A stretch of DNA of 64,000 bases from Candidatus Methylomirabilota bacterium (GTDB lineage Bacteria; Methylomirabilota; Methylomirabilia; Rokubacteriales; CSP1-6): assembly GCA_035605575.1 (NCBI GenBank), contig DASTCJ010000210.1, positions 78,750 to 142,749 on the forward strand, in the 5' to 3' direction. The notes beneath the pieces were generated by a model. The model was not told where the DNA came from and searched no databases. It saw only the letters and a program-made list of their open reading frames with translations. The position numbers and the translations under genes were made by a program. This document shows positions 11,918-44,799 of this stretch, piece by piece; the first letter of the stretch is position 1, and each line of letters begins with the position of its first letter.

Positions 11918-12682
11918 CTAGCCGAGAAACCGCCGCTCGGGATCGAGCGCGCGCAGCATCTCGAGCTCGTCCGCCGCCGGTGGCGCCGTCCGGGTGATCT
12001 CCGGGGCGTCGAGCAGGGCGAACCCGGTGTGATCCTGAACGTGCTCCCGCGTGACGCCCGGGTGGAGCGCCTCCACGCGCATGCGGCGCGTCTCGGGCTC
12101 GAACCCGAACACGCCGAGTGTCGTCACCACTCGCGAGACGCCGCCGAACATCAGTCCCGACCGTCGACGGCTGTCGCCGCCTTCGAGCCAGGCGGGGCTG
12201 GTGACGAAGTCGACCTTCGGTACGAAGCGACGCCGCTCGTGGGCGGTCACGATGATGACCTCGCGACAGAGCGACGCGATGTCGTTGGCGCCGCCCGTGC
12301 CGGGCAGACGCACCTTCGGCTTCCAGTACTCGGCGCCGAGAACGCTCGTGTTGACGTTGCCGTACTGATCGATCTGGGCGCCACCCATGAAGCCGTAATC
12401 GAGGAAGCCGCGCTGGGCGAAGAGGAACGTGTCGGTGATGCCGGGCAGCATCTGTGCGCGATGGCCGGCCCGCATCTCGTTGGTGGAGATCGGCAACCGA
12501 CCGGGCTTGATACGCGGGCCTATGATCCCGCCTTCGATGACCATGGTGAGGCGCGGCGCGTGGCGCTGCTGGGCGAGCGCGGCCGCGAGCAGCGGCACGC
12601 CGACGCCGGCGAAGACAGTGGTGTCGTCGCGCAGCAGGCGCGAGGCCATCACGGCCAGGAGCTCGGACGCGCTGATGCTCAC
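11918..12682 (-). CDS. Family I CoA-transferase beta subunit (GctB/CatJ-like)
   Basis: VFAGVG.P, IEGG (catalytic Glu region), GGAQID.YGNVN, LPGTGGANDIA. Start at GTG 12682. Confidence 0.88.
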   Translation of the reverse strand: MSISASELLAVMASRLLRDDTTVFAGVGVPLLAAALAQQRHAPRLTMVIEGGIIGPRIKPGRLPISTNEMRAGHRAQMLPGITDTFLFAQRGFLDYGFMGGAQIDQYGNVNTSVLGAEYWKPKVRLPGTGGANDIASLCREVIIVTAHERRRFVPKVDFVTSPAWLEGGDSRRRSGLMFGGVSRVVTTLGVFGFEPETRRMRVEALHPGVTREHVQDHTGFALLDAPEITRTAPPAADELEMLRALDPERRFLG

Positions 12683-13662
12683 GCGGTCAGCTCGCGTGCA
12701 AGCGCGCGCTGGCGCGCCAGGCGCTCGCCGCCGAAGAGCTCGAGATAGTCGTCGTACGTCGCCGGCGCATGGACGTAGCGCTCGAGGTACTCGACCACGG
12801 CCCGGGGGCCGCGGGCGTCGATGGCGGAGGTGTAGTCGCCGAAGTGCTCGTAGTCCGCTTCGTAGAGGCCGTAGCACTCGTGTGGGTACGAGCCGAACGG
12901 TACGTGCACGAGGGCGTCCACCAGGAATCCCGGAATGACCGTGCGATCCGGGTGCCGTCGCGTCTCATCCTCCGGAACGATCTCCTCGGTGGTCATCAGC
13001 ACGGTCGTCGCCGCGCGTGCGATGTCGGCGTCCATGTGCGGATAGCCGTCGATCTGCGCGTTGCCGAAGCGATCGGCCCGGTGGACGTGCAGGATGGCCA
13101 CTTCCGGGAACAGCGCGGGGACGGCGCCCAGCGACTCACCCGAGTACGGATCGACCACCGTCTTCATGCCGCCGACGTCCACGAGGTCGGAACCGAGCAT
13201 CGTCAGTGACGGCACGAATGGCACGCCCATGGCTGCCGCGCGGAAACGCAGCCCGAGCGCGAGGTGGCTCCACTCCTCCAGCGCCACGGCGCCGCTTTCC
13301 ACGTAGTGGCGCATGATCTTCGACACGCCCCACGGCAGCCCGATCGACATCCACGCCGTCATGACGCGCTCGACGGCGCCGGCGGCCATCATGAACTCGC
13401 CTTCGGTGCACATCAGGTTGCGCACGAGCGTGAGTCGCGTCCGGCGCTGGCGGAGGATCTCGCGGACGAGGGCCATCGGCGTGCGGGAGAACAGGCAACC
13501 ACCGACGGCAATGCGATCGCCATCGGCCACGCGCGCGATGGCGTCCTCCACCGAGGTCAGCTTGTCGCTCGAGGATTTCGCCTTGGACTCCAGTCGGCGC
13601 CGCGCCGCGATGAAGTCCCAGTCGGCCGGTCTCAGGTGAGGATCTCCCACTTCGCCTGCCAC
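12679..13662 (-). CDS. Family I CoA-transferase alpha subunit (GctA/CatI-like)
   Basis: V.DGD.I..GG....R.PMALVRE, RFRAAAMGVPF, A..HV.RAD..GN. Start uncertain (13662 or 13650). Confidence 0.88.
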   Translation of the reverse strand: MAGEVGDPHLRPADWDFIAARRRLESKAKSSSDKLTSVEDAIARVADGDRIAVGGCLFSRTPMALVREILRQRRTRLTLVRNLMCTEGEFMMAAGAVERVMTAWMSIGLPWGVSKIMRHYVESGAVALEEWSHLALGLRFRAAAMGVPFVPSLTMLGSDLVDVGGMKTVVDPYSGESLGAVPALFPEVAILHVHRADRFGNAQIDGYPHMDADIARAATTVLMTTEEIVPEDETRRHPDRTVIPGFLVDALVHVPFGSYPHECYGLYEADYEHFGDYTSAIDARGPRAVVEYLERYVHAPATYDDYLELFGGERLARQRALARELTA

Positions 13663-15803: not shown

Positions 15804-16181
15804 CTACTCGGTGGTGGCGGTGGTGGCAGGAACCACGTTCACGCGTTTTTCACGCAGCCGCGCCGCCTTGCCGGCGAGCGAGCGGAGGTAGTAGAGCTTC
15901 GAGCGGCGCACGCGTCCGTGGCGGACGACGTCCACGCGCTCGATCCGCGGGGAGTGGAGCGGGAACGTCCGCTCGACGCCGACGCCGTACGAGATGCGAC
16001 GCACGGTGAACGAGGCGCGCGCTCCCTCACCGCGCCGGCGGATGACGGTGCCGTCGAAGACCTGCGTCCGCTCCTTCTCGCCCTCGATGACCTTCACGTG
16101 CACCCGAACCTGGTCGCCGGGGTCGAACCCCTGCCGGTCCTTCTTGAGTTGCCCCGCCTCGACGATCCGAATCGCATCCAT
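15804..16181 (-). CDS. rplS: 50S ribosomal protein L19
   Basis: [44 protein letters not shown]. Confidence 0.98.
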
Positions 16182-16217
16182 GATCTGTCGTCCCTTTCTA
16201 TCGCGGCGCGGCCGTCG

Positions 16218-16949
16218 TCACGACGGCGTCTCCCCGCGTTCGAACCGCTCGATCATCCGCCGCTCCTCGTCGGTCAGGCTGGCCTCGGCCAGCAGCTCCG
16301 GTCGGCGGCGCCACGTCAGGAACAATGCCTGCTCCCGACGCCACCGCGCGACTCGCGCGTGATCGCCCGAGAGCAGCACGCCGGGCACCCGCGCGCCGCG
16401 AAACTCCTCCGGTCGCGTGTACTGCGGCGGCTCCAGCAGGCCGCTCGCGAACGATTCGCGCTCGGCGCCGCCCTCCGCCCCGAGCACGCCGGGCAGCAGG
16501 CGCGTGACGGCGTCGGTCACCACGAGTGCCGGCAGCTCGCCGCCGGTCACCACGTAATCCCCGATCGAGATGCTGTCGTCGACCACGCTGCTGACACGCT
16601 CGTCCACACCCTCGTATCGCCCGGCGATGAGAACCAGATGCGTCTCTCGTGCGAGCTCCGCCGCCACCGCCTGGTTGAACGTCCGCCCGCGGGGATCCAG
16701 GAGGATCACGCGCGTCTCATCCGTTCGCAGGGCCTCGACGGCGGCGAAGATCGGCTCCGGCTTCAGCACCATGCCGCCGCCGCCGCCGAACTGATAGTCA
16801 TCGGCGTTGCGGTGGCGGCCTGTCGCGTAGTCTCGAAGATCGACCACGCGGATGTCAACGAGTCCGCGTTGCCGCGCCCGCCCCAGCATCGAGGCCGAGA
16901 CCACGGGCTCGATCATCCCGGGGAACAGCGTCAGCACGTCGATGCGCAT
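16218..16949 (-). CDS. trmD: tRNA (guanine-N1)-methyltransferase
   Basis: [43 protein letters not shown]. Confidence 0.97.
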
Positions 16950-17470
16950 CAGAGCTCCAGCAGGCCCTCCGGCGGATGGATCACGATCCGTCCGCCCCTG
17001 ATATCCACCTCGCGCACGATCTCGGGCACCGCCGGCACGAGGTGCTCCCGGCCCTCGTCCCCCACCACCCAGAGGTCCTGGGCAGCGCCACGTTCGACGC
17101 GCAGGACACGACCTACGTCGCCTCCGTCCTCGGTCAGCACGCGACAACCGACGAGCTGCCATGGATAAAAGTGCCCGTCGGGCGGCGGCAGCGCCTCCGA
17201 CTCTGGGATGGCGAGCAGCCATCCCGTGAGGGACGCGACGGCCTCGGGAGAGTCGTACCCGTCGACGGCGACGAGCAGTGTCTCGCCCTGAAGGCGGGCG
17301 CCACGGATCCGGCAGGGCTGCCGCCGGTCCCGTGTCTCGTCCCAGAGCACGCACGCCCCGAGCGTCTCGAACCGCTCCGGACGATCGGTGAGCGGCGTCA
17401 CCCGCACCTCGCCTTTGAGCCCGTGCGGCCGGCCGATCTCGCCGATGGCGACGAGCCGGTCGGCGGCCAC
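16949..17470 (-). CDS. rimM: Ribosome maturation factor RimM
   Basis: [28 protein letters not shown]. Located between khpA and trmD. Confidence 0.95.
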
Positions 17471-17700
17471 TACTCGACGATTTCGAGCACGGCGCGCTTG
17501 CGGAGCTTCGTGGCGTTGGCGTTCAAGATCGTGCGCAGCGCCCGCGCCGTGCGGCCCTGCTTGCCGATGACCTTGCCGAGGTCGCCGGGTGCCACGCGCA
17601 GCTCGATGACCGTCACGCGCTCCCCCTCGACCTGCCTGACTTCCACGTGGTCCGAGTCGTCTACCAGTGCCTTCGCCATGAACTCCACCAGCTCGCGCAT
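17470..17700 (-). CDS. khpA: KH-domain RNA-binding protein (KhpA/UPF0109)
   Basis: [28 protein letters not shown]. Start set at ATG 17700. Confidence 0.93.
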
Positions 17701-17752
17701 CGACGTCCTGCCTCTGCTGCAGCTTCCGGTGCTGCGTGTTACGAATGTCCGG

Positions 17753-18001
17753 CTACGCCGTCGGTTTGGGCGACAGCGCAATCAGCTTGCGTACCGTGTT
17801 GGACGGCTGCGCGCCCTTGCTGATCCACGCCTCCGCCTTCGCGCGGTCGATGCTCACCTGCGGCGGATCGGTGACGGGATTGTAGTGGCCGATCACCTCG
17901 ATGAATCGTCCGTCGCGCGGCGAGCGGGAATCCGCGACCACGACGCGGTACCGCGGCCGCTTGCTCGAGCCTTCCCGTCTCAGTCGAATCGAAACACTCA
18001 C
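17753..18001 (-). CDS. rpsP: 30S ribosomal protein S16
   Basis: V.IRL.R.G....[24 protein letters not shown]. Confidence 0.98.
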
Positions 18002-18005
18002 GTGC

Positions 18006-19355
18006 TTACCCCCTCAGCGTCGGAAAGCCCGGCAGGCCCTTGAGCTTGCCGAGACGGCCTTCCACGTTCTTGAACTGCTTCATCATCTTGCGCAGCTGCG
18101 CGTATTGCTTGAGCAGCCGATTCACGTCTTGCACCGAGGTGCCGCTGCCGCGGGCAATGCGCTGACGACGCGAGCCGTTGATGACCTCGGGGTTTTTTCG
18201 CTCGCCCGGTGTCATCGACAGGATGATCGCGTCGAAGCGATCGAGATCGGCCTGCTCGCCATCCAGATCCTTGGGGGCCGCCTTCAGCGCCTTGCCGAAC
18301 GGCAGCATGCCGAGGATCTGGTCGAGCGGCCCGAGCTGCCGTACCTGGCGCAGCTGCTCGCGAAAGTCCTCGAGGCTGAAGCTGTCCTCGCGCAGCTTGC
18401 GAACCATCTCCTGCGCTTTTTCGGCGTCCACGGTCTGCTGCGCCTTTTCCACCAGCGACAGCACGTCGCCCATGCCGAGAATGCGTGAGGCCAGGCGGTC
18501 GGGGTGGAACGCCTCGAGCGCATCCGTCTTCTCGCCCGTGCCCACGAAGGCGATCGGACGACCGGTCACGTGGCGCACGGACAGCGCCGCGCCGCCCCGC
18601 GAGTCGCCGTCGAGCTTGGTCAGGATGACGGCGTCGATACCGACGGCGGCGTTGAACTTTTCAGCGACACCCACGGCGTCCTGACCGGTCATCGCATCGA
18701 CGACGAGAAGGATGTGGTGCGGCTTGACGTCCTGCTTGATGCGCTTGAGCTCGTCGATCATGGCGTCGTCGATGTGCAGCCGTCCCGCCGTATCGAGGAT
18801 CAGCGGGGTGAGGCCGCGCGCCGCGGCATCGTCGAGTGCCGCGCGACAGATCGCCACCGGATCGTCACCGGCGCTGCCCACGACCGGAACACTGAGCTGG
18901 GCGCCGAGCGTGCGCAGCTGCTCCTGCGCGGCCGGACGATACGTGTCGGCGGCGGCGAGCAGCGGGTGCTGACCTTGCTTGGCGTACATCCGCGCGAGCT
19001 TGGCGGCGGTGGTCGTCTTGCCCGAGCCCTGCAGGCCGATGAGCATCACGACCGTGGGTGGGTGCGAGGCGGCGGCCAGCCGATGGCCGCTCCCACCGAG
19101 CAGCTCGACCAGCTCGTCGTGGACGACCTTCACGACTTGCTGCGCGGGAGTCAGCGACTTGAGGACGTCCTGCCCGACGGCTTTCTCGCGCACGCGCTCG
19201 ACGAAGCCGCGCACGACCTTGAAGTTCACGTCGGCCTCCAGGAGGGCGACCCGCACCTCACGGAGGGCCTCCTGGATGTTCTCCTCGGTCAGGCGGCCGT
19301 GGCCCCCCAGCCGGTCGAAGATCGCGGTCAGTCGTGTGCTGAGCGAGTCGAACAT
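18006..19355 (-). CDS. ffh: Signal recognition particle protein Ffh
   Basis: [46 protein letters not shown]. Confidence 0.98.
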
Positions 19356-33696: not shown

Positions 33697-34059
33697 ATGG
33701 CGAAGGTGATGGTGGTCGACGATGCGGTTTCGGAGCTGAAGCTCATGGAATCGATCCTGAAGTCGGCCGGGCATGAGGTGGTGTCGCTGGTGGATGGCGA
33801 GGCGCTGGAGGACAAGCTCTCCAGCGAGCGCCCCGACGTGCTGCTGCTCGACATCGTCATGCCCAAGCGCAACGGTTACGAGATCCTCCGCGCGCTGCGC
33901 AAGGACGCCCGCACGAAGACGACCCCGGTCGTGCTCGTCAGCAGCAAGAACCAGGAGAGCGACCGCGCCTGGGGCAAGCGGCAGGGCGCCGACGAGTATC
34001 TCGGCAAGCCATTCACTTCGGACCAGCTCCTCACGATGGTGAAGCGCTTTGTCCGATGA
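33697..34059 (+). CDS. pilH: Single-domain response regulator, PilH-like
   Basis: VVDD, LLDIVMP..NG, SSKNQESDRAWGKRQGADEYL.KPF, which closely follows the PilH pattern. Confidence 0.85.
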   Translation: MAKVMVVDDAVSELKLMESILKSAGHEVVSLVDGEALEDKLSSERPDVLLLDIVMPKRNGYEILRALRKDARTKTTPVVLVSSKNQESDRAWGKRQGADEYLGKPFTSDQLLTMVKRFVR

Positions 34060-34573
34060 CGCGGTCACGTCCGCGCCGTCGGTGGACGCGGCGCCCGCCG
34101 GGGCCGCCACCGAGACCGCGGCCGCCCCGCGACACCGGGCGTGCATCATCACACTCGGCGGTCAGCCGTTCGCGGTGGATGTCCGGGAGGCGCGCGAGGT
34201 CGTCATCCTCGAGCCGTTGACGCCGGTGCCGGGGGCGCCGCCGCCGCTCATCGGAGTCGCCAACCTGCGCGGCAGCGTTCTCGGCGTCGCGGAGGCGCGC
34301 CCCCTCCTCGGCGTACCGGCACGACCGGTGACGACGGGCTCGCCTGCCCTGGTTATCGCGGCCGGCGAGCTCGTGGCCGCGATCCCCATCGACCGCGTGG
34401 TCGGTCTCGACTGGTTCGATGAGCCGCAGCCGCTCGATGCCAATGACCGCCGGCCCGGCGTCGCGTTCGCCGCCGGGCTCGTACCGCACGCGGGTGACTA
34501 TGCCACGCTACTCGATGCTGGCCGGCTCCTGGACGCGCTGCGCGCGCCATGGGCGTCGGTCGCGGAGGCCTGA
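34049..34573 (+). CDS. cheW: CheW/PilI-like coupling protein
   Basis: LGGQ.FAVDV...REV......TPVPGAP..L.GV.NLRG....V. Start uncertain (TTG). Confidence 0.88.
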   Translation: MSDDAVTSAPSVDAAPAGAATETAAAPRHRACIITLGGQPFAVDVREAREVVILEPLTPVPGAPPPLIGVANLRGSVLGVAEARPLLGVPARPVTTGSPALVIAAGELVAAIPIDRVVGLDWFDEPQPLDANDRRPGVAFAAGLVPHAGDYATLLDAGRLLDALRAPWASVAEA

Positions 34574-34576
34574 TCC

Positions 34577-35905
34577 ATGAACCGTCGCCACTTTCTCGGA
34601 ATGCTCGCCGGCTCGCTCGTCCCCGGCGCCCCGCGCGCGTGGGCGCAGTCCCGCCCGGTTGGTGGTCGTGTCGCACCGGCCGAGCCGACGCCCGTGCGCG
34701 TGGCGACGCCGGCGGTGGCTGCCGTCCCCGGCGTCACGGCCCACGACATCCGGGTCGGCATGAGCGCGGCCTTCCGCGGCACCGCCGCGGGTCTCGGCAC
34801 CGAGTTCTACCGCGGCGCCCAGGCGTACTACAACGACGTCAACGGCAAGGGCGGCGTGCACGGTCGCGGCATCAGCGTGATCGCGCTCGACGACGGCTAC
34901 GAGCCCATTCCGTGCGTGAAGAACACCATTCGTCTCCTCGAAAAGGAGCCGGTGTTCCTGCTGTCCAACTACGTCGGAACGCCGACCCTGACGCGCGCGC
35001 TGCCGGTCATCAAACGCTACGCGGAAACACAGGCCGTGCTCGTCGGCAACTTTACGGGAGCGCAGCCGCAGCGCGAAGCACCGTATGCGGAGCACGTCTT
35101 CAATATCCGCGCCTCGTACCGGCAGGAGATGATGGCGCTGGTCGACCGCTTCTGGCAGCTCGGAGCCCGCAAGTTCGGTGTGTATTACCAGATCGACGCC
35201 TACGGCCGCAGCGGCACCGACGGCGTCGCCCGCGGCCTCGCCCAGCGCGGCGTCCGCATCGTGGCCGAGGCGACCTATCCACGCGGCGCCAAGTTCACCG
35301 ACGACATGACGCCAGCCGTGAACGCGCTACGCCGCGGAGGCGTCGACGTCGTGCTCTGCACGGGCGCCTATCAGGGCTGTGGGGCCTTCGTGCGGACCGC
35401 CCGCGACGCCGGCTGGACGGTGCCGATCTCGAACCTGTCCTTCGTGGGCTCCGAGGCGATGCTGGCGCTGCTCGTCAAGCACGGCAAAGCCGTCGGTCGT
35501 GATTACACGCGGGCGCTCGTGAACTCGCAGGTCGTGCCGAGCTACGACGACGTCAGCCTGCCGGGCGTGGCCGAGTATCGGCTGCTCATGGACCGACACA
35601 ATCCGCCGCTGCCCGAGTCGCTGCGCGATCCGAGCTACGCGCTGCAGCGCTACAGCTTCATCAGCCTCGAGGGCTTCGTGAACGCGAAGGTCATCGTCGA
35701 GGCGCTCCAGCGCACCGGGCCACAGCCGACCCGCGTGGCCTTCCGGCAAGCCCTCGAGTCGTTGCGCAACTTCGATCTGGGTATCGGTTCGAGCTTGAGC
35801 TTCGGCCCAGAGCGGCACCAGGGACTCGACTCCGTGTACTTCACCCGCGTCGACGGCGAGCGATGGATTCCCATCGCCGACTGGGCCGCGGCAATTTCGG
35901 TGTAG
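34577..35905 (+). CDS. Orphan type-1 periplasmic binding protein (LivJ-like fold, Tat signal) within the chemosensory operon
   Basis: MNRRHFL, I.VGMSAAF.G....LG, N..GGV.GR.I..IALDD.Y.P, FN.RASY..E. No permease or ATPase adjacent. Confidence 0.88.
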   Translation: MNRRHFLGMLAGSLVPGAPRAWAQSRPVGGRVAPAEPTPVRVATPAVAAVPGVTAHDIRVGMSAAFRGTAAGLGTEFYRGAQAYYNDVNGKGGVHGRGISVIALDDGYEPIPCVKNTIRLLEKEPVFLLSNYVGTPTLTRALPVIKRYAETQAVLVGNFTGAQPQREAPYAEHVFNIRASYRQEMMALVDRFWQLGARKFGVYYQIDAYGRSGTDGVARGLAQRGVRIVAEATYPRGAKFTDDMTPAVNALRRGGVDVVLCTGAYQGCGAFVRTARDAGWTVPISNLSFVGSEAMLALLVKHGKAVGRDYTRALVNSQVVPSYDDVSLPGVAEYRLLMDRHNPPLPESLRDPSYALQRYSFISLEGFVNAKVIVEALQRTGPQPTRVAFRQALESLRNFDLGIGSSLSFGPERHQGLDSVYFTRVDGERWIPIADWAAAISV

Positions 35906-35916
35906 GGGGCCTTCAC

Positions 35917-37692
35917 ATGACATCTGTGCGCCTTCGCTTCGGACTGCTGCCCAAGATGGTCGTGTTCCTGGCCGTCGTTCTCATCCCGCTGGCCGCGATC
36001 ACCTGGTATGTCTCCGTGCAGCGGCTGCGCGCCGAGATGACGGACGAGTTCACGTCGAAAGGAACCGCCATCGCGAACAGCCTGGCCTCCTCCGGCGTCG
36101 ATTTGATCCTCACGCGCGACGCCTCGACCGTGCAGGCACTCATCGACCAGTTCGTGAGCATCAGCGGCGTGCATTACGTCATGGTGTACGACTCGCAGAA
36201 GAACCTCATTGCGCATACGTTCCACCCCGTGGTGCCGCCCGACCTCATCGACAAGAACCTCGTGCCCGGCGACGCCGCCAAGCAGGTGCGCGACGTCGTC
36301 TATCAGCATCCCGTCACCGGTGAGTCGCAGGAGATCATCGACGTCGGCGTGCCGATGCTGGGTGGCCAGCTCGGCACCGTCCGCGTCGGCATGAACAAGG
36401 CGATCATCCACGCCGCTGCCGCCCGGGCGGGCTGGTTCCTGTCCGAGGTGTTCGGCGGCATCGCGCTGCTGGCCGTCCTCGCCGGCGCCATGTTCGCGAC
36501 CCGCCTGACGCAACCGATCAGCGCCATCGTCCGTGTCGCCGAGCACGTCGGTCGCGGAGATCTGTCGCAGACGGTGACCGTCCAGTCGCGCGACGAGATC
36601 GGGCAGCTCGCCCGTACCTTCAACGACACGATCGTGCGGCTGCGGGCCCACGTCACCACCGAGGCCGAACGCGACGAGGAGCGCCGCCGCCGCGAGAGCC
36701 TGCAGGCGAACATCACGCAGTTCCTTGAGACAATGACGGAGATCGCCCAGGGCGATCTGCGCCAGCGCGGCCAGGTGACCCCGGACGTCCTCGGCAACGT
36801 CGTGGACTCCGTGAACGTCATGGTCGAGGAGATCGGCGCCCTCCTCGCCGATGTCCGCCACGCGGCCACGCGCGTGGCCACGAGCGCCGGCGAGATGATC
36901 GGGGCCACCGACCAGGTGGCGCGTGGCGCCGAGACGCAGGCGCGCGACGCCACCACCGTGAGCCGCGAGGTGGAGACGATGACGCGGTCGGTGCGGCAGA
37001 TCGCGTCGAACGCGGGCTCGGCGGCCACCGCCGCGCGCCAGACGCTGCAGGCGGCCACGCGCGGCGAGGACGCCGTGCGCAACAGCCTGTCCGGCATGCA
37101 GCGGATCCGCGGCGAAGTGCAGGTCATCTCGAAGAAGATCAAGAGCCTCGGCGACCGCTCGCTCGAGATCTCGAACATCGTCGACACCATCGAGGAGATC
37201 GCCTCGCACACGAACCTCCTGGCGCTGAACGCGGCCATCGAGGCGGCCGGGGCCGGCGAGTACGGCGCGCGCTTTGCCGTGGTCGCCGATGAGATCCGCA
37301 AGCTCGCCGAGCGCGCGGCCAGCGCCACCAAGGACATCGCCGGCCTCATCCGCTCGGTCCAGACGGAGACGCAGGAGGCGGTCGTGGCGATGGAGGAAGG
37401 TACGCGAGAGGTCGAGGCGGGCTACCAGGTGACCATCAACGCCGAGGAGAGCTTGAAGCAGATCGCCGGCATTTCGCGCACGTCGGCCGAGCTCGCCGAG
37501 GAGATCTCCGGCGTCACTCAGGAGCAGGTGCGCGGCGCCGAAGGCGTGGCCACCGCCATGCGGTCGATCGCCCAGGTCGCCGTACACACCGAGCAGGCGG
37601 TGCTGCAGACGCGCCGGACGGTCGACGATCTCGTGAAAGTCGCCGACGAGCTCACCCGAAGCCTGTCACGGTTCAAGCTGGCGACCGCCTAG
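35917..37692 (+). CDS. Methyl-accepting chemotaxis protein (PilJ-like, two HAMP domains)
   Basis: Two TMs around a periplasmic domain, HAMP1 and HAMP2, signalling tip TNLLALNAAIEAA.AGE.G..FAVVADEIRKLAE. Confidence 0.95.
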   Translation: MTSVRLRFGLLPKMVVFLAVVLIPLAAITWYVSVQRLRAEMTDEFTSKGTAIANSLASSGVDLILTRDASTVQALIDQFVSISGVHYVMVYDSQKNLIAHTFHPVVPPDLIDKNLVPGDAAKQVRDVVYQHPVTGESQEIIDVGVPMLGGQLGTVRVGMNKAIIHAAAARAGWFLSEVFGGIALLAVLAGAMFATRLTQPISAIVRVAEHVGRGDLSQTVTVQSRDEIGQLARTFNDTIVRLRAHVTTEAERDEERRRRESLQANITQFLETMTEIAQGDLRQRGQVTPDVLGNVVDSVNVMVEEIGALLADVRHAATRVATSAGEMIGATDQVARGAETQARDATTVSREVETMTRSVRQIASNAGSAATAARQTLQAATRGEDAVRNSLSGMQRIRGEVQVISKKIKSLGDRSLEISNIVDTIEEIASHTNLLALNAAIEAAGAGEYGARFAVVADEIRKLAERAASATKDIAGLIRSVQTETQEAVVAMEEGTREVEAGYQVTINAEESLKQIAGISRTSAELAEEISGVTQEQVRGAEGVATAMRSIAQVAVHTEQAVLQTRRTVDDLVKVADELTRSLSRFKLATA

Positions 37693-37698
37693 CTGGAC

Positions 37699-40473
37699 AT
37701 GATGGAGTCGGCCGACCGGGAGTTTCTGCGCTCCATCTTTCTGATGGAGGCGTGGGAGACCGTCGCGGCTCTCGAGGATGGCGCGGAGGCGGCCGCCCGC
37801 GGCGACCTGGAGACGCTGTATGTCGTCACCCACCGTCTCAAGGGCGCCGCGTCGCTCTACGGCTTTCCCGCGATCGCCGCGCTCGCCGGCGATCTCGAAG
37901 CCGTCCTCGAGACGACGCCGTTCCCCGCCGTCCGTCTCGCGTCGCTGCTCGCAGATCTCAAGCGCGCGCTGGACTCGCTGCCCGCCGGCACAACGGTGGC
38001 GACCGCCGTGCAACCGGCCGCCGCGCCGTCTGCGCACGAGAGCGGTGATGCCGCCGACTCGGTGCTCGACGACCCGATCCGCCGCGAGCTCGCGGAGTTC
38101 TTCGCCGCCAACGTCGACGTCGCAGCGTATTTCGTGCCGGAGGCGACCGAGCATCTGGAGGCGATCGCGACGGCGCTCCTCGCGCTCGAGCGCGGCGGCG
38201 GCGAGGACGAGCTGGCGCGGTTGTTCCGCTCGATGCACACGATCAAGGGCGCCGCCTACGTCGTCGGCTGCGTGCGCATCGGTGAGCTGGCCCATCGCGC
38301 CGAGGATTTGCTGGTCGCGGTGCGCGAAGGCGAGGCGACGCTGTCGCCGCCGGCTCTCGAGGCGTTGTTTGCCGCGGTGGACGTCCTGAAGCTCATGCTT
38401 GGCATCAATGCGAATCCGACGGCGTCCATGACGACGCTGGCCGCGGACGTCGGCGGCCGGCTGGAGGCACTGCTCGCATCGCCGCCGACCCCGCGTGCAA
38501 TGGACGCGGCACCGGTGCCGCCGGCACCGGCCATGGCGGATACGCGTGTCGAGGCGCTGGTACCGGCGCGCGCGGCGCGGCGCCGCGCGCCGGCCTCGAG
38601 CGCGACGCCGCGGCGCGCGCCACGACAGACGATTCGCGTCAACCTCGAGCGCCTCGATGCGCTCATGGACCTGATCGGCGAGCTCGTGACCGGGCGCAGT
38701 CGCGTCGACCGCCGCCTCGACGAGCTGGATCGCGTGTCGGCATCGCTGTTCGCCAGTCGCGCCCGCCTGGCCGAGGCCGTGAGCGAGTTCGAGCGCCGGC
38801 AGCTCGACCCGCGACGCGCCAGCGTCGCGAAGCCAGCGGCGCCGGTCAAGCCGACCGTGATCGGCCAAAGCGGTCTATCAGTGGCCGAGATGTTCGCGGA
38901 GCTGGAGTTCGATCGGTACGACGACGCCGGCATGTTCGCCCGCAGCATCGCCGAGATCGCCTCGGACATCGCGGAGCTCCAGGCCGAGCTCGTCGGGGTG
39001 AACCGCGCGCTGCGTGACGACGTGGCCCAGGTGCACCGGCTGACGGCCGCCATTCGCGGCGAGATCGGTCGCGCGCGGCTGGTGCCCGTCGGCAATCTGT
39101 TCACGCGGTTCGTCCGTCAGGGCAAGGAAGCAGCCCGCGCGGCCGGCAAGCAGGTGCAGATCGAGACGCTCGGCGAGACGGTCGAGCTGGATACGTCGGT
39201 CATCGAGCAGATCGTGGACCCGCTGCTGCACCTCGTGCAGAACGCCATCGGGCATGGCATCGAGTCGGTGGACGAGCGGCGCGCTCGCGGGAAGCCGCCG
39301 ATCGGCGCCGTCACGCTGTCGGCGACGCATCAGGGCGGCGCCGTCGTGCTGGAGGTCGCCGACGACGGGCGCGGAATCGATACCGACCTCGTACGGCGCC
39401 GCGCGGTGGCGCGCGGATTCGTCAGCGCGGACAACGCGGCCGCCCTCAGCGATCGCGAGGCCATCGACCTCATCTTCCTGCCCGGCTTCAGCACCGCGAC
39501 CGCCGTGACGACGGCATCGGGTCGTGGCGTGGGCATGGATGTCGTTCGCACCAACGTTCGGCGACTGAACGGCGAGGTCGACGTGGCGTCGACCCCGGGC
39601 GAGGGCACGCGCTTCACGCTTCGGCTGCCCCTCACCGTGCTCGTGTCGGAGGCGCTGCTCGTGAGCGCCGGCGGCGAAACGTTCGCCGCTCCCCTGAACT
39701 CCGTGCAGCTGGTGACGGCCGTTTCCCCCGAGCGCGTCCGACCCGGGGTGCAGGGCGAAACGCTGAGCCTCGCCGAGGACACCGTCGATCTGGTGAGCCT
39801 GGCGACCATCCTTGGATTGCCGGAACCGCCGCGCGGTGCCCGTCGCCCCGCGGTGGTGCTGCGGGCGGCCGGACGCTCGCTCGGCGTCGAAGTGGACCAG
39901 CTCCTGCACAAGCAGGACATCGTCATCAAGCCGCTGGGGGCGTTTCTCGAGGGCGCCGGTCCGTACGCCGGGGCCACGGTCACTGCCGACGGCCGCGTGG
40001 TGCTGCTCCTCGACGCGCTGGGTGTCGCCGAGCAGGCCGCGCGCCGCGCGCGCGCCGAGCGCGCCGCGCCCTTGGCCGTCGATGCGACCAGCCGCCCGGC
40101 CGCGCGCAAGCGGGTGCTCCTCGTGGACGACTCGATCAGCGTGCGGCGGTTCGTCGGCCAGATGCTCGAGAAAGCGGGCTTCGAGGTCACCACCGCCGCC
40201 GATGGTGCCGACGCGATCGCCCGTGTCGGCGAGGGCGGTCGTTTCGACGTCGTCGTGACCGACCTCGAGATGCCGCGTGTGAATGGGTACGAGCTCATCG
40301 ACGATCTGCGCCGGCGCCCGTCCACGCGGGGGCTGCCGGTGATCGTCCTGACGACTCGCGCCGGCGACAAGCACGTCGCGCTTGCCCGGGACCTCGGTGT
40401 CGACCACTACGTCACGAAGCCGGTCGAGGAACGGACGTTCGTGTCCCTTGTGAGCTCGGTGGTGCACGGGTGA
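37699..40473 (+). CDS. cheA: Hybrid CheA/ChpA-like kinase (Hpt-Hpt-dimerisation-HATPase-CheW-REC)
   Basis: Hpt1 THRLKGAA, Hpt2 MHTIKGAA, RVNLERLD.LM.L.GEL, HLVQNAIGHGIE, DDGRG, LPGFSTA...SGRGVGMDVV, CheW domain, C-terminal REC (VTDLEMP..NG, KP). Confidence 0.95.
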   Translation: MMESADREFLRSIFLMEAWETVAALEDGAEAAARGDLETLYVVTHRLKGAASLYGFPAIAALAGDLEAVLETTPFPAVRLASLLADLKRALDSLPAGTTVATAVQPAAAPSAHESGDAADSVLDDPIRRELAEFFAANVDVAAYFVPEATEHLEAIATALLALERGGGEDELARLFRSMHTIKGAAYVVGCVRIGELAHRAEDLLVAVREGEATLSPPALEALFAAVDVLKLMLGINANPTASMTTLAADVGGRLEALLASPPTPRAMDAAPVPPAPAMADTRVEALVPARAARRRAPASSATPRRAPRQTIRVNLERLDALMDLIGELVTGRSRVDRRLDELDRVSASLFASRARLAEAVSEFERRQLDPRRASVAKPAAPVKPTVIGQSGLSVAEMFAELEFDRYDDAGMFARSIAEIASDIAELQAELVGVNRALRDDVAQVHRLTAAIRGEIGRARLVPVGNLFTRFVRQGKEAARAAGKQVQIETLGETVELDTSVIEQIVDPLLHLVQNAIGHGIESVDERRARGKPPIGAVTLSATHQGGAVVLEVADDGRGIDTDLVRRRAVARGFVSADNAAALSDREAIDLIFLPGFSTATAVTTASGRGVGMDVVRTNVRRLNGEVDVASTPGEGTRFTLRLPLTVLVSEALLVSAGGETFAAPLNSVQLVTAVSPERVRPGVQGETLSLAEDTVDLVSLATILGLPEPPRGARRPAVVLRAAGRSLGVEVDQLLHKQDIVIKPLGAFLEGAGPYAGATVTADGRVVLLLDALGVAEQAARRARAERAAPLAVDATSRPAARKRVLLVDDSISVRRFVGQMLEKAGFEVTTAADGADAIARVGEGGRFDVVVTDLEMPRVNGYELIDDLRRRPSTRGLPVIVLTTRAGDKHVALARDLGVDHYVTKPVEERTFVSLVSSVVHG

Positions 40474-41507
40474 AAGTCTTGATCGTCGACCCCGACGCCG
40501 CGCGCGCGGCGACGGTGGCCGCGGCGTTCACCGCCAATGGCGCGCAGCCCACCGTCGCGCCGAGTGCCTCGTTCGCGCTCACGATGCTCGAGTGGAATCG
40601 GCAGGACGTGATCATCAGCCGCTCGCAGCTCGGCGACATGGACGCGCACGAGCTGTGCTCCATGGTGCGTGGCGACCCCTCGACGGTTGGCGTGAGCTTC
40701 GTCCTGATCGCCAGCCCCATTCCGACCTCGCAGATGTCGCTGACGGGGGTCGATCTCGTCATTCCGGATGGACTCGTCGGTCCGGCGATCGTCACGCGCG
40801 TGACGCATCTGATGCGACGCAAGGCGCCGAGCAGCGCTGCCCTGCCATCGGCGCTGCCCGCGGCGCCCGCCAGGCCGCCCGCGGTCACGCCGGTGGCGCC
40901 GCTGGTGACAGAGCCGCTGTCGCTGACGCCCACACCGCCGGCAACGTCGATCCCCGCGCCAACGGACCCGGTCGTCGCGGCGCCCGCGGTGCCGACGCTC
41001 GTCGCATTGCCGCCAGCCGTCTCGAGTGCGCCGCCCGCTCCGCCATCACCGGTCGCGCCCGCGGCCACGCCGCCGGTCGTGGCGCCGACGGCCGGCGTCA
41101 TGCTGAAGGGGGCGGCGCCGCCACCGCCTCCGCTCACCGAGCTGGAAGCGGTCGGGATGAACGGCGCCATGCGGACGTTTCAGGGCGCGCTCGGAGCGCT
41201 CGCGCTCGAAGATATCGCGCGGGCCATCGTCAAGGGCACCAAGACGGGGCGCCTGCTCGTCGTGCTCGGCACCGGCGGCGGCATGTTGGCGTTCGAGAGC
41301 GGTCGCATCGTGCACGCCGAGATCGGCAACACCACCGGCGAGACCGCGTTCCGGTCGCTGCTGGCCGCGTCGCATGGCGACGCCGGCGGCAAATTCTGCT
41401 TCATTCCATCGTCGCCACGCGATCTCGCCAACGTCCCGAAGACGATTACTCGCACGGTGGCCGAGCTTCTGGCCGGCGCCGCCGAGGCGACGAACGAGGA
41501 GAGATAA
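40470..41507 (+). CDS. Pseudo-receiver + Pro/Ala-rich linker + DUF4388 (PATAN-like) protein
   Basis: REC-like N-terminus (KVLIVDPD, DVIISRSQL). C-terminal FQG.L..L.L.DI.......KTG.L.V......G.L.F..G.I.HA......GE.AF..L....G.F.F. Confidence 0.75.
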   Translation: MKVLIVDPDAARAATVAAAFTANGAQPTVAPSASFALTMLEWNRQDVIISRSQLGDMDAHELCSMVRGDPSTVGVSFVLIASPIPTSQMSLTGVDLVIPDGLVGPAIVTRVTHLMRRKAPSSAALPSALPAAPARPPAVTPVAPLVTEPLSLTPTPPATSIPAPTDPVVAAPAVPTLVALPPAVSSAPPAPPSPVAPAATPPVVAPTAGVMLKGAAPPPPPLTELEAVGMNGAMRTFQGALGALALEDIARAIVKGTKTGRLLVVLGTGGGMLAFESGRIVHAEIGNTTGETAFRSLLAASHGDAGGKFCFIPSSPRDLANVPKTITRTVAELLAGAAEATNEER

Positions 41508-41510
41508 ACC

Positions 41511-42470
41511 ATGCCCAAGGTCCTGGTCATCGACGACAGCGTCAGCGTGCGGAAGGTCGTGGAGCGCGCGCTGGCGGGAAGGCAGGTCGACGTCACCTGC
41601 GCAGCGTCGGGCACCGACGCGCTGGAGTGCATGGAGCGCGATGCCCCGGACGTCATCATCTGCGACGTCGTCATGCCGGATCGTGACGGCTACGAGATCT
41701 GCGAGTTCGTGAAGAAGCATCCGCGACTGGGCGAGATTCCGGTGCTGCTGATGTCGGGCATCGTGAACGACGAGGTCAAGCAGCGGGCGGCGCGCGCCCG
41801 TTCCGAGGGAGTGCTGGCCAAGCCGTTCGCCGCCGAGGATCTGCTCAAGCGTCTGGAGACACTCGTCGGTCCGCTCGCGCCGCGCGTGGCCGAGGCGACG
41901 ACGCCGAACGCTCCGGCGCCGTCGCCCGCCGTCGACGCGATACCGACGTTGATGCCGGTCTCCACACTGTCGGTGCCGCCGATCGAGCCGCTCAAGTCGA
42001 CACCGCCGAAGCCGGCGCCGGCGGTACCGGCGGTCGCCGCCGACATCACGCCATCCGACTCTGCACGTCGCGTGGCCGAGCCCGTGGCCATCGCGCCGAC
42101 GTCGGCGGTGGCCGCACCGACCGACGCGGCGGCCGCCGTCCTCGCGCAGTTCACCGCGATGAACGGCGTGCAGTGGGCGGTGTTGTCGGATCGCGAGGGC
42201 TTCGTGGTCGAGGCGACCACCAACGCCGGCGTCGATGCCGATGTCGCGGCCGCGCTGAGCGCGTGTCTGGCCGAGTCGTCGGACGGGCTCGGCAAGGAGC
42301 TTGGCCGGGGTGGCCTGCACAGCATCATGCTCGAGTACGAGAAGGGCATGGTGATCGTCTACAGCGCCGGCCTCGGGCTGCTCGCCGTCGGTATGAGCGA
42401 GCCCGCCGTCCTCGGCAAGGTGCGCTACTTCGCCAAGAAGGCGCTGCCGGAGCTGATGCGGTCGGTGTGA
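41511..42470 (+). CDS. Response regulator + Pro/Ala-rich linker + Roadblock/LC7 domain
   Basis: Intact REC (IDDS, CDVVMP, KPF). C-terminal L......GV..AVL.DREGFVV, AAL.A.L......G.EL..G.L..I.LEY..G.V. Confidence 0.85.
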   Translation: MPKVLVIDDSVSVRKVVERALAGRQVDVTCAASGTDALECMERDAPDVIICDVVMPDRDGYEICEFVKKHPRLGEIPVLLMSGIVNDEVKQRAARARSEGVLAKPFAAEDLLKRLETLVGPLAPRVAEATTPNAPAPSPAVDAIPTLMPVSTLSVPPIEPLKSTPPKPAPAVPAVAADITPSDSARRVAEPVAIAPTSAVAAPTDAAAAVLAQFTAMNGVQWAVLSDREGFVVEATTNAGVDADVAAALSACLAESSDGLGKELGRGGLHSIMLEYEKGMVIVYSAGLGLLAVGMSEPAVLGKVRYFAKKALPELMRSV

Positions 42471-44356
42471 TGCCGCGCTATCGCAAGTCGGAAACCCGTT
42501 GGGTGCATGCGGCATGCGTCGCGGGCGGCTATCTCGTCTGCGTCGCGGGCCTGTTCACCCTGCAGGCCGGCGCCGGCTTGAACGTGCCGATCTCGGTGGC
42601 GGTGTCGGCGCCGCCCCTGGTGTATGCGGCGTTGGCGGTGCTGCTGCTGCGGGAGGCCGCCTTCGTCCGACGCCTCTCCTGGCTCGGCGGTGCCTGTCTC
42701 GTGCACGTCGTTCTCGCCGGGCTGGCGGCGACGGAGCTCGCCTGGGCCGGCGGCCTGTCGCTCGGCAACGCTCTCGCGCAGGTGTTCGTACTGTTCCCTC
42801 CCGCCCCGCTGCTCACGCTGATCGCGACGCCGCTGATCCTCGCGACATTCGGGATGACCGCGTCCAGACCGGCGCCCCGTTCTGACGCCGCCGCGCCGCG
42901 GTTGGCGACCGGCACGCGATCCAGGGGCGTCATTCCGTCTCCGCGCGCTGCCGGCGCCGCGGCCGAGAGCGCGCCGACTGCCGCGCGGACGATCGCGCCA
43001 CCGACCACCCGCGTGGCTCCTTCCGTCGTGCCGATCGCCTCGACGCCGTCGCCCACGACACCGCCGGCCGTCGTTGCGCCGGCACCGACGGCGCCGCGCA
43101 CGAATCCACCGTCGAAGCCCGGCCGAGCGGCCAACGACGGCATGGTGCGCGTGCCGTTCGACCGAATCGCCGCGCAGCTTCCCGCCGAGGCATTCGTGCT
43201 GCCGTTCGAGCGACTTGGGGAAAGCCTCCGCGAGCCGCATGTGATCCTCGTCCCGCGGCGCGTCGTGCTCTCGCAGATGCGCGACGGCGCGGTCGTCATC
43301 ACGTGGGCGCACATCGCATCGCAGTTTCCGGACCTCGCGCTTGGAATGACGGGCGACCAGTTCCGAAAGGAATATCCCGATCTCAAATTCGTGCTGCCCG
43401 TGGACGAGCTGGACGCTCAGCTCACGCCCGACGCCGTCGGCACCGCGCCGGTCTCGGCGCCGTTGCCGGTCGTGGCGCCGAAACCGTCCGCGGTCCCCGC
43501 GCGAGCAGACGTCACGCCGACCCCGGCCGCGACAGTGGAGGCGCCCGCGTCGTCGCGGGCGCCCGCGGCGGCCAGCACCACGCCGGCTGCACGCGCGTTG
43601 CCCCGATCCGCACCGAGTTCACCACCGCCGGCGGAGATGATGGATCGCGGGACGCTGGCGCGCATCGTCGCCTGCTTCAGCGGGGTCGGCACGTTCGAAG
43701 CTGCGGCCGAGCGGAACGCGGGCACCGTGGCCGTGGTACTGGTCGAGCCAGGGGTGTCGCGCGAAGCGGCCATCGCCTGCGCCGGCCGGCTCCTGCCGTT
43801 CGTCGCGGGCGTTTCCGCCGACGTCGTCACGCTGCGTACCGAACGAACGGTGCTGGTGCTTGCCGCCGCGTCAGCACCGATCGTCGTTGCCGTGCATCGG
43901 CCCAACGCCTCGGTCGCGCTACTGGCGCTTCGAGCGCTGAGCGCTGCCGCCATTGCGGGCACCATCCCGCCGGCCACTCCAGCGCCACCGCGTCGCGATC
44001 TCGAGCCGATGGGATCCGATGATCGTGTGGCGCGCGCGGCGCTGGCGCTGCGGACTTTTGGCGGCGCCGAGCCGACCGTCTTCGCCGACGCGAGCGGGCG
44101 TGTGTACGTCTTCAGCGGCGGCGGAGGCGATGACAAGGGCGTGGCGGCCCTGGCTCTCGGTGTCGTCGAGGCACTCGGCGATGGCGGTGAGCTCGGGGCT
44201 CCGGTCACCGTGGTGTTCCGGCGCGGCGCCGAGCAGACGGTGATCCGTCCGCTCTCCGGGCGCGCGGGCGTTCTCGCCGCCACGGGCGTGGTGACGCGGC
44301 CGGGCCGCGCCCTGCGGGATGCCGAGCGGGCGGCGGCGGTCCTCGAGACGCGCTGA
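42470..44356 (+). CDS. Hypothetical 628-aa membrane-anchored scaffold (N-terminal TM bundle, Pro-rich linkers, internal repeat domain, two probable degenerate Roadblock-like domains)
   Basis: ATG shares one base with the upstream stop, and its own stop shares one base with the downstream ATG. Domain calls come from visual secondary-structure patterning only. Confidence 0.7.
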   Translation: MPRYRKSETRWVHAACVAGGYLVCVAGLFTLQAGAGLNVPISVAVSAPPLVYAALAVLLLREAAFVRRLSWLGGACLVHVVLAGLAATELAWAGGLSLGNALAQVFVLFPPAPLLTLIATPLILATFGMTASRPAPRSDAAAPRLATGTRSRGVIPSPRAAGAAAESAPTAARTIAPPTTRVAPSVVPIASTPSPTTPPAVVAPAPTAPRTNPPSKPGRAANDGMVRVPFDRIAAQLPAEAFVLPFERLGESLREPHVILVPRRVVLSQMRDGAVVITWAHIASQFPDLALGMTGDQFRKEYPDLKFVLPVDELDAQLTPDAVGTAPVSAPLPVVAPKPSAVPARADVTPTPAATVEAPASSRAPAAASTTPAARALPRSAPSSPPPAEMMDRGTLARIVACFSGVGTFEAAAERNAGTVAVVLVEPGVSREAAIACAGRLLPFVAGVSADVVTLRTERTVLVLAAASAPIVVAVHRPNASVALLALRALSAAAIAGTIPPATPAPPRRDLEPMGSDDRVARAALALRTFGGAEPTVFADASGRVYVFSGGGGDDKGVAALALGVVEALGDGGELGAPVTVVFRRGAEQTVIRPLSGRAGVLAATGVVTRPGRALRDAERAAAVLETR

Positions 44357-44799
44357 TGAGCGCGCGCCTCGCCATCGGCGACGGAGACATGGGGAAGGTC
44401 CAAGCGCTCCTGGAGCGCCTGCTCGCGGACACCGGTTGCGCTGCCGTCGTGCTGAGCGGCCGTGACGGCGCATCGCTTGCCACTGCTGGCGCCGCCCGCG
44501 CGCTCGACGTCGTGTCGATGACGGCGCTGGCGGCCGGCGGCTTCAGCTCGACGGCGCCGCTGGCCCGGCTCCTCGGGGAGCGCGAGTTCTCCGTCCTCAT
44601 TCACGAAGGGGTGCGCCAGAGCCTGCACGTGAGCGCCGTCGACGACGCGACGATCCTGGTGGCGGTGTTCGACGAGCGGACGACGGTCGGAATGGTTCGC
44701 GTCTTCGCGCGCGAAGCAGCGGCTAAGCTCGCCACCATCCTCGACGAAACGCGAGCGGGATCGGGCCATGCGCGCCGATCGGGGCCGGGCGAGACGTGA
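44356..44799 (+). CDS. mglB: MglB-like Roadblock/LC7 protein
   Basis: Aligns by eye with Myxococcus MglB: L.RL..D.....V.L....G..L..AG....D..S...L.AG.......LA.L.GE.EF....HEG...SL....V....LV..FD.RT..G.VR. Confidence 0.8.
   Translation: MSARLAIGDGDMGKVQALLERLLADTGCAAVVLSGRDGASLATAGAARALDVVSMTALAAGGFSSTAPLARLLGEREFSVLIHEGVRQSLHVSAVDDATILVAVFDERTTVGMVRVFAREAAAKLATILDETRAGSGHARRSGPGET

Follow-up and report, generated by a model that had tools for sequence, protein, structure and literature searches.

Here we describe gene X, which encodes a 628-amino-acid (aa) membrane protein in a 64,000-nucleotide (nt) stretch of the genome of a Candidatus Methylomirabilota bacterium (assembly GCA_035605575.1, contig DASTCJ010000210.1, positions 78,750 to 142,749; the whole stretch is hereafter called the window). 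With a probability that we put at roughly 0.55, X is a membrane-tethered Roadblock scaffold that couples the output of a chemosensory system to an MglB module and to the control of the pilus. Among the small-GTPase switches of bacteria, the MglA/MglB polarity modules are those understood best, yet how the switch is attached to a membrane site or to the machinery of the pilus is understood only in part. To our knowledge, the known Mgl components (MglA, MglB, MglC and RomR/X/Y) are all soluble. If the proposed role is correct, X would be a direct membrane anchor for the Mgl switch and a prokaryotic parallel to the Ragulator principle of eukaryotes. The hosts of X are uncultured Rokubacteria, and every statement on the function of the protein is one that we infer.

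Gene X and its domain organization

The open frame around X spans positions 42173 to 44356, and translation from the ATG at position 42470 gives the protein of 628 aa. This start is supported because the N-terminal pattern MxRYR....RW is kept across 47 aligned homologs and because the ATG shares bases with the stop codon TGA of the gene before it (GTG TGATG CCG). The stop codon of X overlaps the ATG of the following gene in the same manner (CGC TGATGA GCG), and X is therefore translationally coupled to both of its neighbors. The relatives of X comprise 56 close homologs and 179 cluster representatives, and since the domain organization described below is conserved over about 180 cluster representatives and 91 genomes, it is far beyond what could arise by chance.

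The protein has no match in Pfam at E ≤ 0.1, and among 47 members of the family a single one matched Robl_LC7, at E 2.2. Neither X nor its ortholog in locus L001 is matched by any NCBIfam model, nine distant members likewise had no meaningful match in Pfam or NCBIfam, and when the whole-family profile was run against the PDB sequences with hmmsearch, only chance matches were returned. Matches to Lysostaphin_N and LptF/G in two to four members, at E 0.004 or worse, were dismissed as noise from low-complexity and transmembrane (TM) segments.

The N-terminal part of X contains four hydrophobic stretches within residues 11-132, where Kyte-Doolittle windows above 1.6 start at residues 11-15, 39-48, 69-75 and 101-114. 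The AlphaFold2 model of the full-length protein, which was built on the 47-sequence alignment, places helices at residues 6-30, 41-59, 65-94 and 98-126, with a predicted local distance difference test score (pLDDT) of 79-88. Basic patches are found in the Arg/Lys-rich N-terminus, in an RR-containing loop after the second TM helix (residues 60-70) and in a stretch after the fourth, and according to the positive-inside rule both ends of the protein would be cytoplasmic. With four helices of TM length and charges that fit a single topology, X is predicted to be a polytopic inner-membrane protein. The TM helices contain the conserved polar residues R68, C76, H79 and T120, and the membrane part may thus also contact another membrane protein.

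The membrane domain is followed by a middle domain and two C-terminal domains, called C1 and C2, with one tether before and one after the middle domain. The tethers (residues 137-222 and 320-387) are rich in Pro, Ala and Thr, have a pLDDT below 50 and are the least conserved and most length-variable parts of the protein. Expressed as the frequency of the commonest residue, conservation is 0.76 in the middle domain, 0.67-0.68 in the membrane and C-terminal domains and 0.47-0.49 in the linkers. An initial annotation, made from the letters of the window alone, had listed an unrecognised 628-aa protein at 42470-44356 with about four N-terminal hydrophobic segments and two linkers. The frame has turned out to be a real and conserved gene, as judged from its ATG, its homologs and its overlaps, and it is indeed unrecognised by the Pfam and NCBIfam models; the hydrophobic segments agree with the hydropathy profile and the AlphaFold2 helices, and the linkers with the regions of low pLDDT and low conservation.

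The C-terminal domains

Both C1 and C2 very probably have the Roadblock fold. Residues 393-496 and 518-626 are each predicted by AlphaFold2, at a pLDDT of about 90, to form the elements alpha-beta-beta-alpha-beta-beta-beta-alpha, which is the order found in the Roadblock/LC7 topology of about 100-120 residues. Two C-terminal segments of about 110 aa with this pattern of helices and strands had already been read from the sequence, and the model reproduces them; when the folds were checked for being other than Roadblock/longin-like, the predicted topology came out as Roadblock. The two domains were compared on position-pure sets of sequences, since iterated searches mix them, and their profiles, drawn from 152 proteins, match each other with a probability of 96% (E 2.4e-9, 92 columns). 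C1 and C2 are thus homologous, and the pair therefore arose by tandem duplication.

The only credible matches of the full-length model in a Foldseek search were to MglB of Myxococcus xanthus (chains of 6hjm; probability 0.77-0.82, target template modelling score (TM-score) 0.53-0.58) and to the Ragulator/LAMTOR structures 5y3a_G and 6ehp_B (probability 0.75-0.82), the latter with the best TM-scores (0.60-0.64). The 4-hydroxyphenylpyruvate dioxygenases that head the list are noise (probability < 0.15, root-mean-square deviation about 15-20 Å, TM-score ≤ 0.13). We assign the two domains to the Roadblock fold because of their predicted topology, the Foldseek matches to MglB and LAMTOR and a weak, in-register signal between profiles, for which the values are given below. 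The two domains would probably pack as an intramolecular pseudo-dimer, similar to the MglB dimer or a LAMTOR heterodimer, in which Roadblock proteins pair through the edge of the beta-sheet and helix alpha2; the connector between C1 and C2, which is modelled at a pLDDT of 80-92, is an indirect hint of such packing.

The middle domain

The middle domain (residues 224-319) is the best-conserved block of X and holds most of its invariant columns. These include R227, F230, Q236-L237-P238, F242, L244-P245, R248, E251-S252-L253, P256, P262, R264, V266, W279 and Q285-F286-P287, among others. The full-length model and a dedicated model of the domain (pLDDT 84.4, predicted TM-score 0.72) agree on two successive beta-alpha-alpha-beta-alpha units. 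Comparison of the two halves of the domain by hhalign gave E 8.6e-5 when based on 47 sequences and E 3.1e-14 (probability 98.2%, 46 columns) when based on 199 copies of the domain, as compared to E 0.014 in a control with reversed columns. Together with the two units in the models, these values show that the repeat is a real internal duplication, and the apparent two-fold repeat in a domain of about 95 aa, which had been noted from the sequence, is hereby confirmed.

No Pfam or NCBIfam model matches the middle domain, and an hmmsearch of its profile against the PDB sequences found no match. A Foldseek search with the dedicated model likewise gave no match in the PDB (best E 3.5, probability 0.02) and none among the predicted viral structures in BFVD. 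The domain, which falls into no class within the PDB and BFVD libraries, may thus be new as a fold, and the X family offers a confidently modelled domain for which these two libraries hold no structural match. A LysM-like beta-alpha-alpha-beta module was considered and rejected, as Foldseek gave no such match and the location of the domain is predicted to be cytoplasmic rather than extracytoplasmic.

The number of middle domains ranges from one to four, and most members of the X family have one. Orthologs of about 900-1270 aa with two tandem middle domains occur in the same gene context (L004 1056-4076, L016, L018 and the genomes of genus g11). Two proteins of about 1600 aa, P0192 (L021 4158-9002) and P0186, contain four copies behind four N-terminal hydrophobic helices, and C1 and C2 are not detectable in them. 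They come from an organism with a GC content of 42%, where genes for an ABC transporter precede and a TPR protein follows, and the middle domain therefore exists outside the Rokubacteria and in another gene context.

It has been reported that PATAN domains bind PilB1 and PilC and that their membrane localization depends on a further partner (bioRxiv 10.1101/2021.06.11.447907). Because of this report, the extreme conservation of the middle domain and its variable copy number, we speculate that the domain is an adaptor to the PATAN protein or to the pilus motor.

Conserved gene order and distribution of X

Ten co-directional genes make up the cluster in the window, from a cheY-like gene at 33.7 kb to a second Roadblock gene at 45.2 kb, and X is number eight among them. 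The order CheY-CheW-periplasmic binding protein-chemoreceptor (MCP)-CheA/receiver (REC), REC-PATAN, REC-Roadblock, X, [MglA], MglB, [PilB, TPR-Roadblock], Roadblock is shared by more than 20 loci of metagenomes and of Rokubacteria/Methylomirabilota genomes, at identities of X down to about 30%. In all loci whose contig covers the position just upstream of X, the gene found there is the one for the REC-Roadblock protein. In the window, the receiver domain of this protein reads as canonical, with DD at positions 8-9, D52 and the K in LAKPF. The gene downstream of X in the window codes for an MglB homolog of 147 aa, which matches the NCBIfam MglB model (NF052242) at 1.6e-20, below the cut-off of the model, and the structures of M. 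xanthus MglB at 3.7e-21 in a phmmer search. Pfam detects three Roadblock domains in the operon and none elsewhere in the genome.

Most of the relatives contain three additional genes, namely mglA after X, and pilB and a TPR-Roadblock gene after mglB. The GTPase is a clear MglA, which matches over its full length MglA of Thermus thermophilus (3t12; E 1.9e-69) and MglA of M. xanthus (E 1.3e-67). Where present, mglA is located directly downstream of X and, in the genomes for which coordinates were compared, starts within about 30 nt of its end, as for example in genome G086, where X is at 16173-18326 and mglA at 18333-18935. In L001, mglA is at 12203-12811. In L014 (7373-7866, the same as L024 2874-3367 in genome G081), mglA is split over two overlapping frames that match residues 1-26 and 52-202 with residues 27-51 missing, and is either a decaying gene or an assembly error. 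The ATPase (L001 13268-15520) passes the TIGR02538 cut-off for type IVa PilB. It has an N-terminal extension of about 180 aa and an MshE-type cyclic di-GMP motif at residues 185-236, through which cyclic di-GMP may feed into the module of X and the Mgl proteins. The TPR protein (L001 15534-16382) has a match to Pfam Robl_LC7 in its C-terminal half (residues 150-225, E 1.1e-4). The full cluster thus contains six Roadblock domains by count: one in the REC-Roadblock protein, two in X and one each in MglB, the TPR-Roadblock protein and the last Roadblock protein.

A profile search identified X in 91 of the 251 Methylomirabilota genomes and in 24 of the 68 genera. There is one gene per genome, and several matches in one genome represent pieces of a single gene. 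Almost all genomes with X belong to the same family as the genome of the window, a sister family contributes a few and a more distant family only one, and all 16 matches to named genomes are from Rokubacteria/Methylomirabilota. MglA is found in 124 of the 251 genomes, among them most of those that contain X, and the MglA proteins of other Methylomirabilota families show 53-59% identity. Two genomes from other families (G001 and G020) have a plain mglB-mglA pair, with no gene for X, a REC-Roadblock protein or a PATAN protein within 10 kb. X therefore belongs to a version of the Mgl module that is linked to chemosensory and PATAN genes.

A subclade without mglA

The window and the loci L005 (genome G087), L006 (genome G083) and L008 lack mglA, pilB and the TPR gene, and mglB directly follows X in these loci. 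No homolog of MglA was found anywhere in the genome to which the window belongs, which is 88.9% complete, so that this genome has an orphan MglB: it has kept a clear MglB homolog and a second Roadblock gene and has no cognate MglA. In a tree of the MglB-like proteins the four loci are placed on one side of a single branch with a support of 93/93, and one change suffices to explain their gene content. The terminal branches of the MglB-like proteins are longer in this clade, 0.33 in the window and 0.72 in L008 as compared to a median of 0.038. This suggests that mglA, pilB and the TPR gene were lost once, after which the constraint on MglB was altered.

The nearest genome compared, that of L005, is 60% identical to the window at the protein level. 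For X, the identity between the two is 77% in the membrane domain, 78% in the middle domain, 61% in C1 and 68% in C2. X and its Roadblock partners are thus kept under constraint in a clade without mglA, and X therefore has a function that needs neither MglA nor the PilB of the cluster. The clade represents a natural "experiment" that could show the role of a Roadblock network without its GTPase.

Proposed role of X and alternative explanations

A scaffold that recruits partners of the MglB family fits the conserved arrangement of the genes, in which X is located directly between the REC-Roadblock gene and mglA-mglB, or mglB alone in the window. In the proposed mechanism, the four TM helices would hold X in the inner membrane, and the disordered tethers would carry first the middle domain and then the Roadblock pair. 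The pair would form a membrane docking platform for the REC-Roadblock regulator, MglB and the second Roadblock protein of the operon, and in most relatives it would also dock MglA. Phosphorylation of the REC-Roadblock receiver by CheA would alter the assembly on X, and this would in turn result in membrane-localized control of the MglA/MglB switch and of the type IV pilus, via PilB and the PATAN protein. In the lineage of the window, which has lost mglA, pilB and the TPR-Roadblock gene, the scaffold would have to work with the Roadblock and PATAN proteins that are left. A membrane or polar anchor for MglB-family partners was also the interpretation in the initial annotation, and it is supported in part: the anatomy on which it was based stands, but it missed the absence of MglA from this genome, the conservation of the middle domain and the presence of PilB in most relatives.

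Several observations weigh against this reading. The genome of the window has neither MglA nor the PilB of the cluster, so that docking of a GTPase cannot apply there. The scaffold gives no role to the middle domain, which is the most conserved part of X, and the conserved polar residues in the TM helices may point to a membrane part that does not serve as an anchor alone. Furthermore, Pfam Robl_LC7 (PF03259) fails on X and no sequence family matches it significantly, and no Roadblock match was returned for the C2 profile when the PDB sequences were searched with hmmsearch. Since Foldseek was queried with the whole model of 628 aa, the E-values of the matches to MglB and LAMTOR are in the range 0.2-0.6. 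For hhalign, 171 genuine Roadblock sequences were merged into one alignment; against it, C2 reaches E 7.8e-4 at a probability of 25%, with 109 columns in register, and C1 reaches E 0.076 with 90 columns. The middle domain, used as a control against the same alignment, gives E 0.6. Shallow hhalign comparisons of C1 and C2 with the Roadblock groups of the operon were not significant. Two undoubted Roadblock groups of this operon match each other only at E 0.009, and since the signal is weak even between genuine Roadblock proteins, the Roadblock family must be very divergent. X also has no match to the NCBIfam MglB model, and judged by its sequence it is a member of neither the MglB family nor the Pfam Robl_LC7 family.

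It is possible, though rather doubtful, that X does more and forms the core of a bacterial counterpart to Ragulator. X and up to four other Roadblock proteins of the operon would then build a stacked platform on the inner membrane that tethers and regulates MglA/MglB and relays the phosphorylation signal from CheA to the pilus motor, and the middle domain, as a putative previously undescribed fold, would link it to this motor or to the PATAN protein.

We consider it unlikely that X is a direct regulator or effector of MglA, such as a membrane-bound guanine nucleotide exchange factor (GEF), a co-GAP (a partner of the GTPase-activating protein) or a receptor for the GTP-bound state, comparable to RomR-RomX, RomY or the GEF role proposed for Ragulator, rather than a passive scaffold. 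That mglA, where present, directly follows X and that most genomes with X also contain MglA would agree with such a role, as would the fact that Roadblock/longin dimers are classic platforms for the binding of GTPases, for example in the MglB2:MglA structures cited in PMC3199381. However, the clade of the window has lost mglA and kept all domains of X, which argues for a function independent of MglA. In addition, catalytic or binding residues cannot be mapped on X, where the similarity to MglB is at the level of the fold only.

Somewhat less likely still is an explanation in which the middle domain has the key function. X would in that case act as a receptor that brings the PATAN protein, or the pilus motor (the N-terminus of PilB, or PilC), to a site on the membrane, and the Roadblock pair would provide a regulatory input only. 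The high conservation of the middle domain points in this direction, and a copy number that varies from one to four is typical of a binding module, which is moreover present without detectable C1/C2 in the 1600-aa membrane proteins of the unrelated organism with 42% GC. The PATAN proteins of Synechocystis stay at the membrane without PilB1 or PilC, which implies a further membrane partner (bioRxiv 10.1101/2021.06.11.447907), and genes of the PilM, PilC and PilB types are present on the contig of X. Yet neither the PDB nor BFVD provided a structural or sequence analog from which a ligand could be derived, and the domain is conserved both with and without the PilB of the cluster, so that this PilB is not an obligatory partner.

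It is very improbable that X in the genome of the window is a decaying and now functionless remnant of a system without GTPase and ATPase, as the absence of mglA, pilB and the TPR-Roadblock gene and the longer MglB-like branches of the clade might suggest, because the reading frame and the coupling to both neighbors are intact, the loss is apparently a single older event common to at least four divergent loci (93/93), and all four domains of X still show 61-78% identity in the comparison of the window with L005, in contrast to the diverging linkers.

Comparison with known systems

A membrane-tethered Roadblock scaffold, as proposed here for X, can be compared with several known systems. MglB, the GTPase-activating protein of MglA, and MglC are Roadblock/LC7 regulators of the MglA polarity switch in M. 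xanthus and T. thermophilus and have the same fold topology as that predicted for C1 and C2, and X adjoins genuine mglA and mglB genes. MglB dimers bind MglA, MglC binds MglB and RomR, and LAMTOR heterodimers stack with the C-terminal Roadblock domains of the Rag proteins (PMC3199381, PMC7949163, PMC5680233). The proposed role of X would resemble that of MglC, as a partner of MglB that has Roadblock domains and no catalytic activity. However, MglB and MglC are soluble single-domain homodimers, whereas X is embedded in the membrane and combines a fused pair of Roadblock domains with a further domain and two long tethers.

In eukaryotes, Ragulator holds Roadblock dimers and the Rag GTPases at a membrane, and the stacked Roadblock dimers of the Ragulator (LAMTOR1-5)-Rag complex can be compared to the six Roadblock domains in the full cluster of X (PMC5680233). 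By analogy, the scaffold logic of X would be the same as in Ragulator, with Roadblock dimers and a GTPase that are tethered to a membrane. The two differ in that Ragulator is anchored by the lipidated LAMTOR1 and has its Roadblock domains on separate polypeptides, while X uses TM helices, and common descent is supported only at the level of the shared superfamily.

The conservons of Streptomyces (CvnA-D), as outlined in PMC4316618, are membrane-associated complexes that also combine a sensor kinase with a Roadblock protein, CvnB, and a GTPase of the MglA family, CvnD. In the conservons, however, the histidine kinase is itself the membrane component, and they are without a tandem-Roadblock membrane protein, PATAN, Che proteins and PilB. 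The RomR protein of M. xanthus (also RomR-RomX), in which a receiver and a Pro-rich linker precede an output region that connects MglA/MglB polarity with a Che-like system, resembles in design the REC-Roadblock protein in combination with X and its Pro-rich tethers. There is no sequence relationship between them, and RomR is soluble and polar whereas X is embedded in the membrane and has no receiver domain.

The PatA-type (PATAN) regulators of cyanobacteria, which act on PilB and PilC, likewise combine a chemosensory-type pathway, a PATAN output and a pilus ATPase (bioRxiv 10.1101/2021.06.11.447907). X itself contains no PATAN domain, which distinguishes it from these regulators, and it is a candidate for the membrane partner of the PATAN proteins. 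That genes for MglA/MglB are neighbors of PATAN genes has been mentioned before, in PMC4316618, which cites Makarova et al. 2006. Full-text searches of the literature did not reveal any bacterial tandem-Roadblock protein that is described as embedded in the membrane, and X represents a new architecture and a new family within the Roadblock-based GTPase and polarity modules.

Neighboring genes in the window

The coordinates of the domains of X and of the neighboring genes are listed in Table 1.

Table 1. Positions in the window of gene X, its domains and the other genes of the cluster.
Feature	Position	Strand	Evidence
Gene X, 628-aa membrane protein (P0001)	42470..44356 (including stop codon)	+	Open reading frame; homologs; TGATG overlaps at both ends
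N-terminal membrane domain, residues 1-130, four predicted TM helices	42470..42859	+	Hydropathy; AlphaFold2; conserved columns
Tether 1, disordered, Pro/Ala/Thr/Arg-rich, residues 131-221	42860..43132	+	pLDDT < 50; length-variable, poorly conserved
Middle domain, residues 222-320, duplicated unit (beta-alpha-alpha-beta-alpha) of about 48 aa	43133..43429	+	hhalign; model
Tether 2, disordered, residues 321-389	43430..43636	+	pLDDT < 50; low conservation
C1, first Roadblock-like domain, residues 390-500	43637..43969	+	Topology; pLDDT about 90; homologous to C2
C2, second Roadblock-like domain, residues 510-628	43997..44353	+	Topology; Foldseek MglB/LAMTOR; hhalign
CheY-like and CheW genes, opening the cluster	33697..34555	+	tblastn matches
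Periplasmic binding protein and sCache-HAMP-MCP chemoreceptor	34577..37692	+	Pfam
CheA-type hybrid kinase (Hpt, dimerization, HATPase, CheW, REC)	37699..40473	+	Pfam
Receiver-like domain and PATAN (DUF4388) protein	40470..41507	+	Pfam; syntenic in relatives
Response regulator: receiver, Pro-rich linker, Roadblock/LC7	41511..42470	+	Pfam Response_reg 1e-23, Robl_LC7 1.7e-12
MglB homolog, 147 aa, translationally coupled to X	44356..44799	+	Pfam Robl_LC7
Second single-domain Roadblock protein, 134 aa	44796..45200	+	Pfam Robl_LC7 4e-7; PDB 7yh1 (Roadblock/LC7) 5e-4

The gene for the periplasmic binding protein (Peripla_BP_6, 34577-35905) is kept between cheW and the chemoreceptor gene in essentially all related clusters, and the protein may act as a co-receptor. 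In the PATAN protein (40470-41507), the receiver-like domain comes first, which is the reverse of the order in PatA of the cyanobacteria. The match to Response_reg is weak (E 7e-4) and covers positions 1-76 only, and the position of the phospho-acceptor is apparently substituted (DVIISRSQL), which suggests that the domain is a pseudo-receiver.

Elsewhere, the genome of the window encodes six ATPases of the T2SSE type. The contig of X (C140) contains PilM, two PilC-type matches and a PilB-type ATPase at 47.9-64.6 kb, with X at 121.2 kb. These genes are thus located 57-73 kb upstream of X and 14-31 kb before the first base of the window, and two PilT-like genes are located on contig C7.

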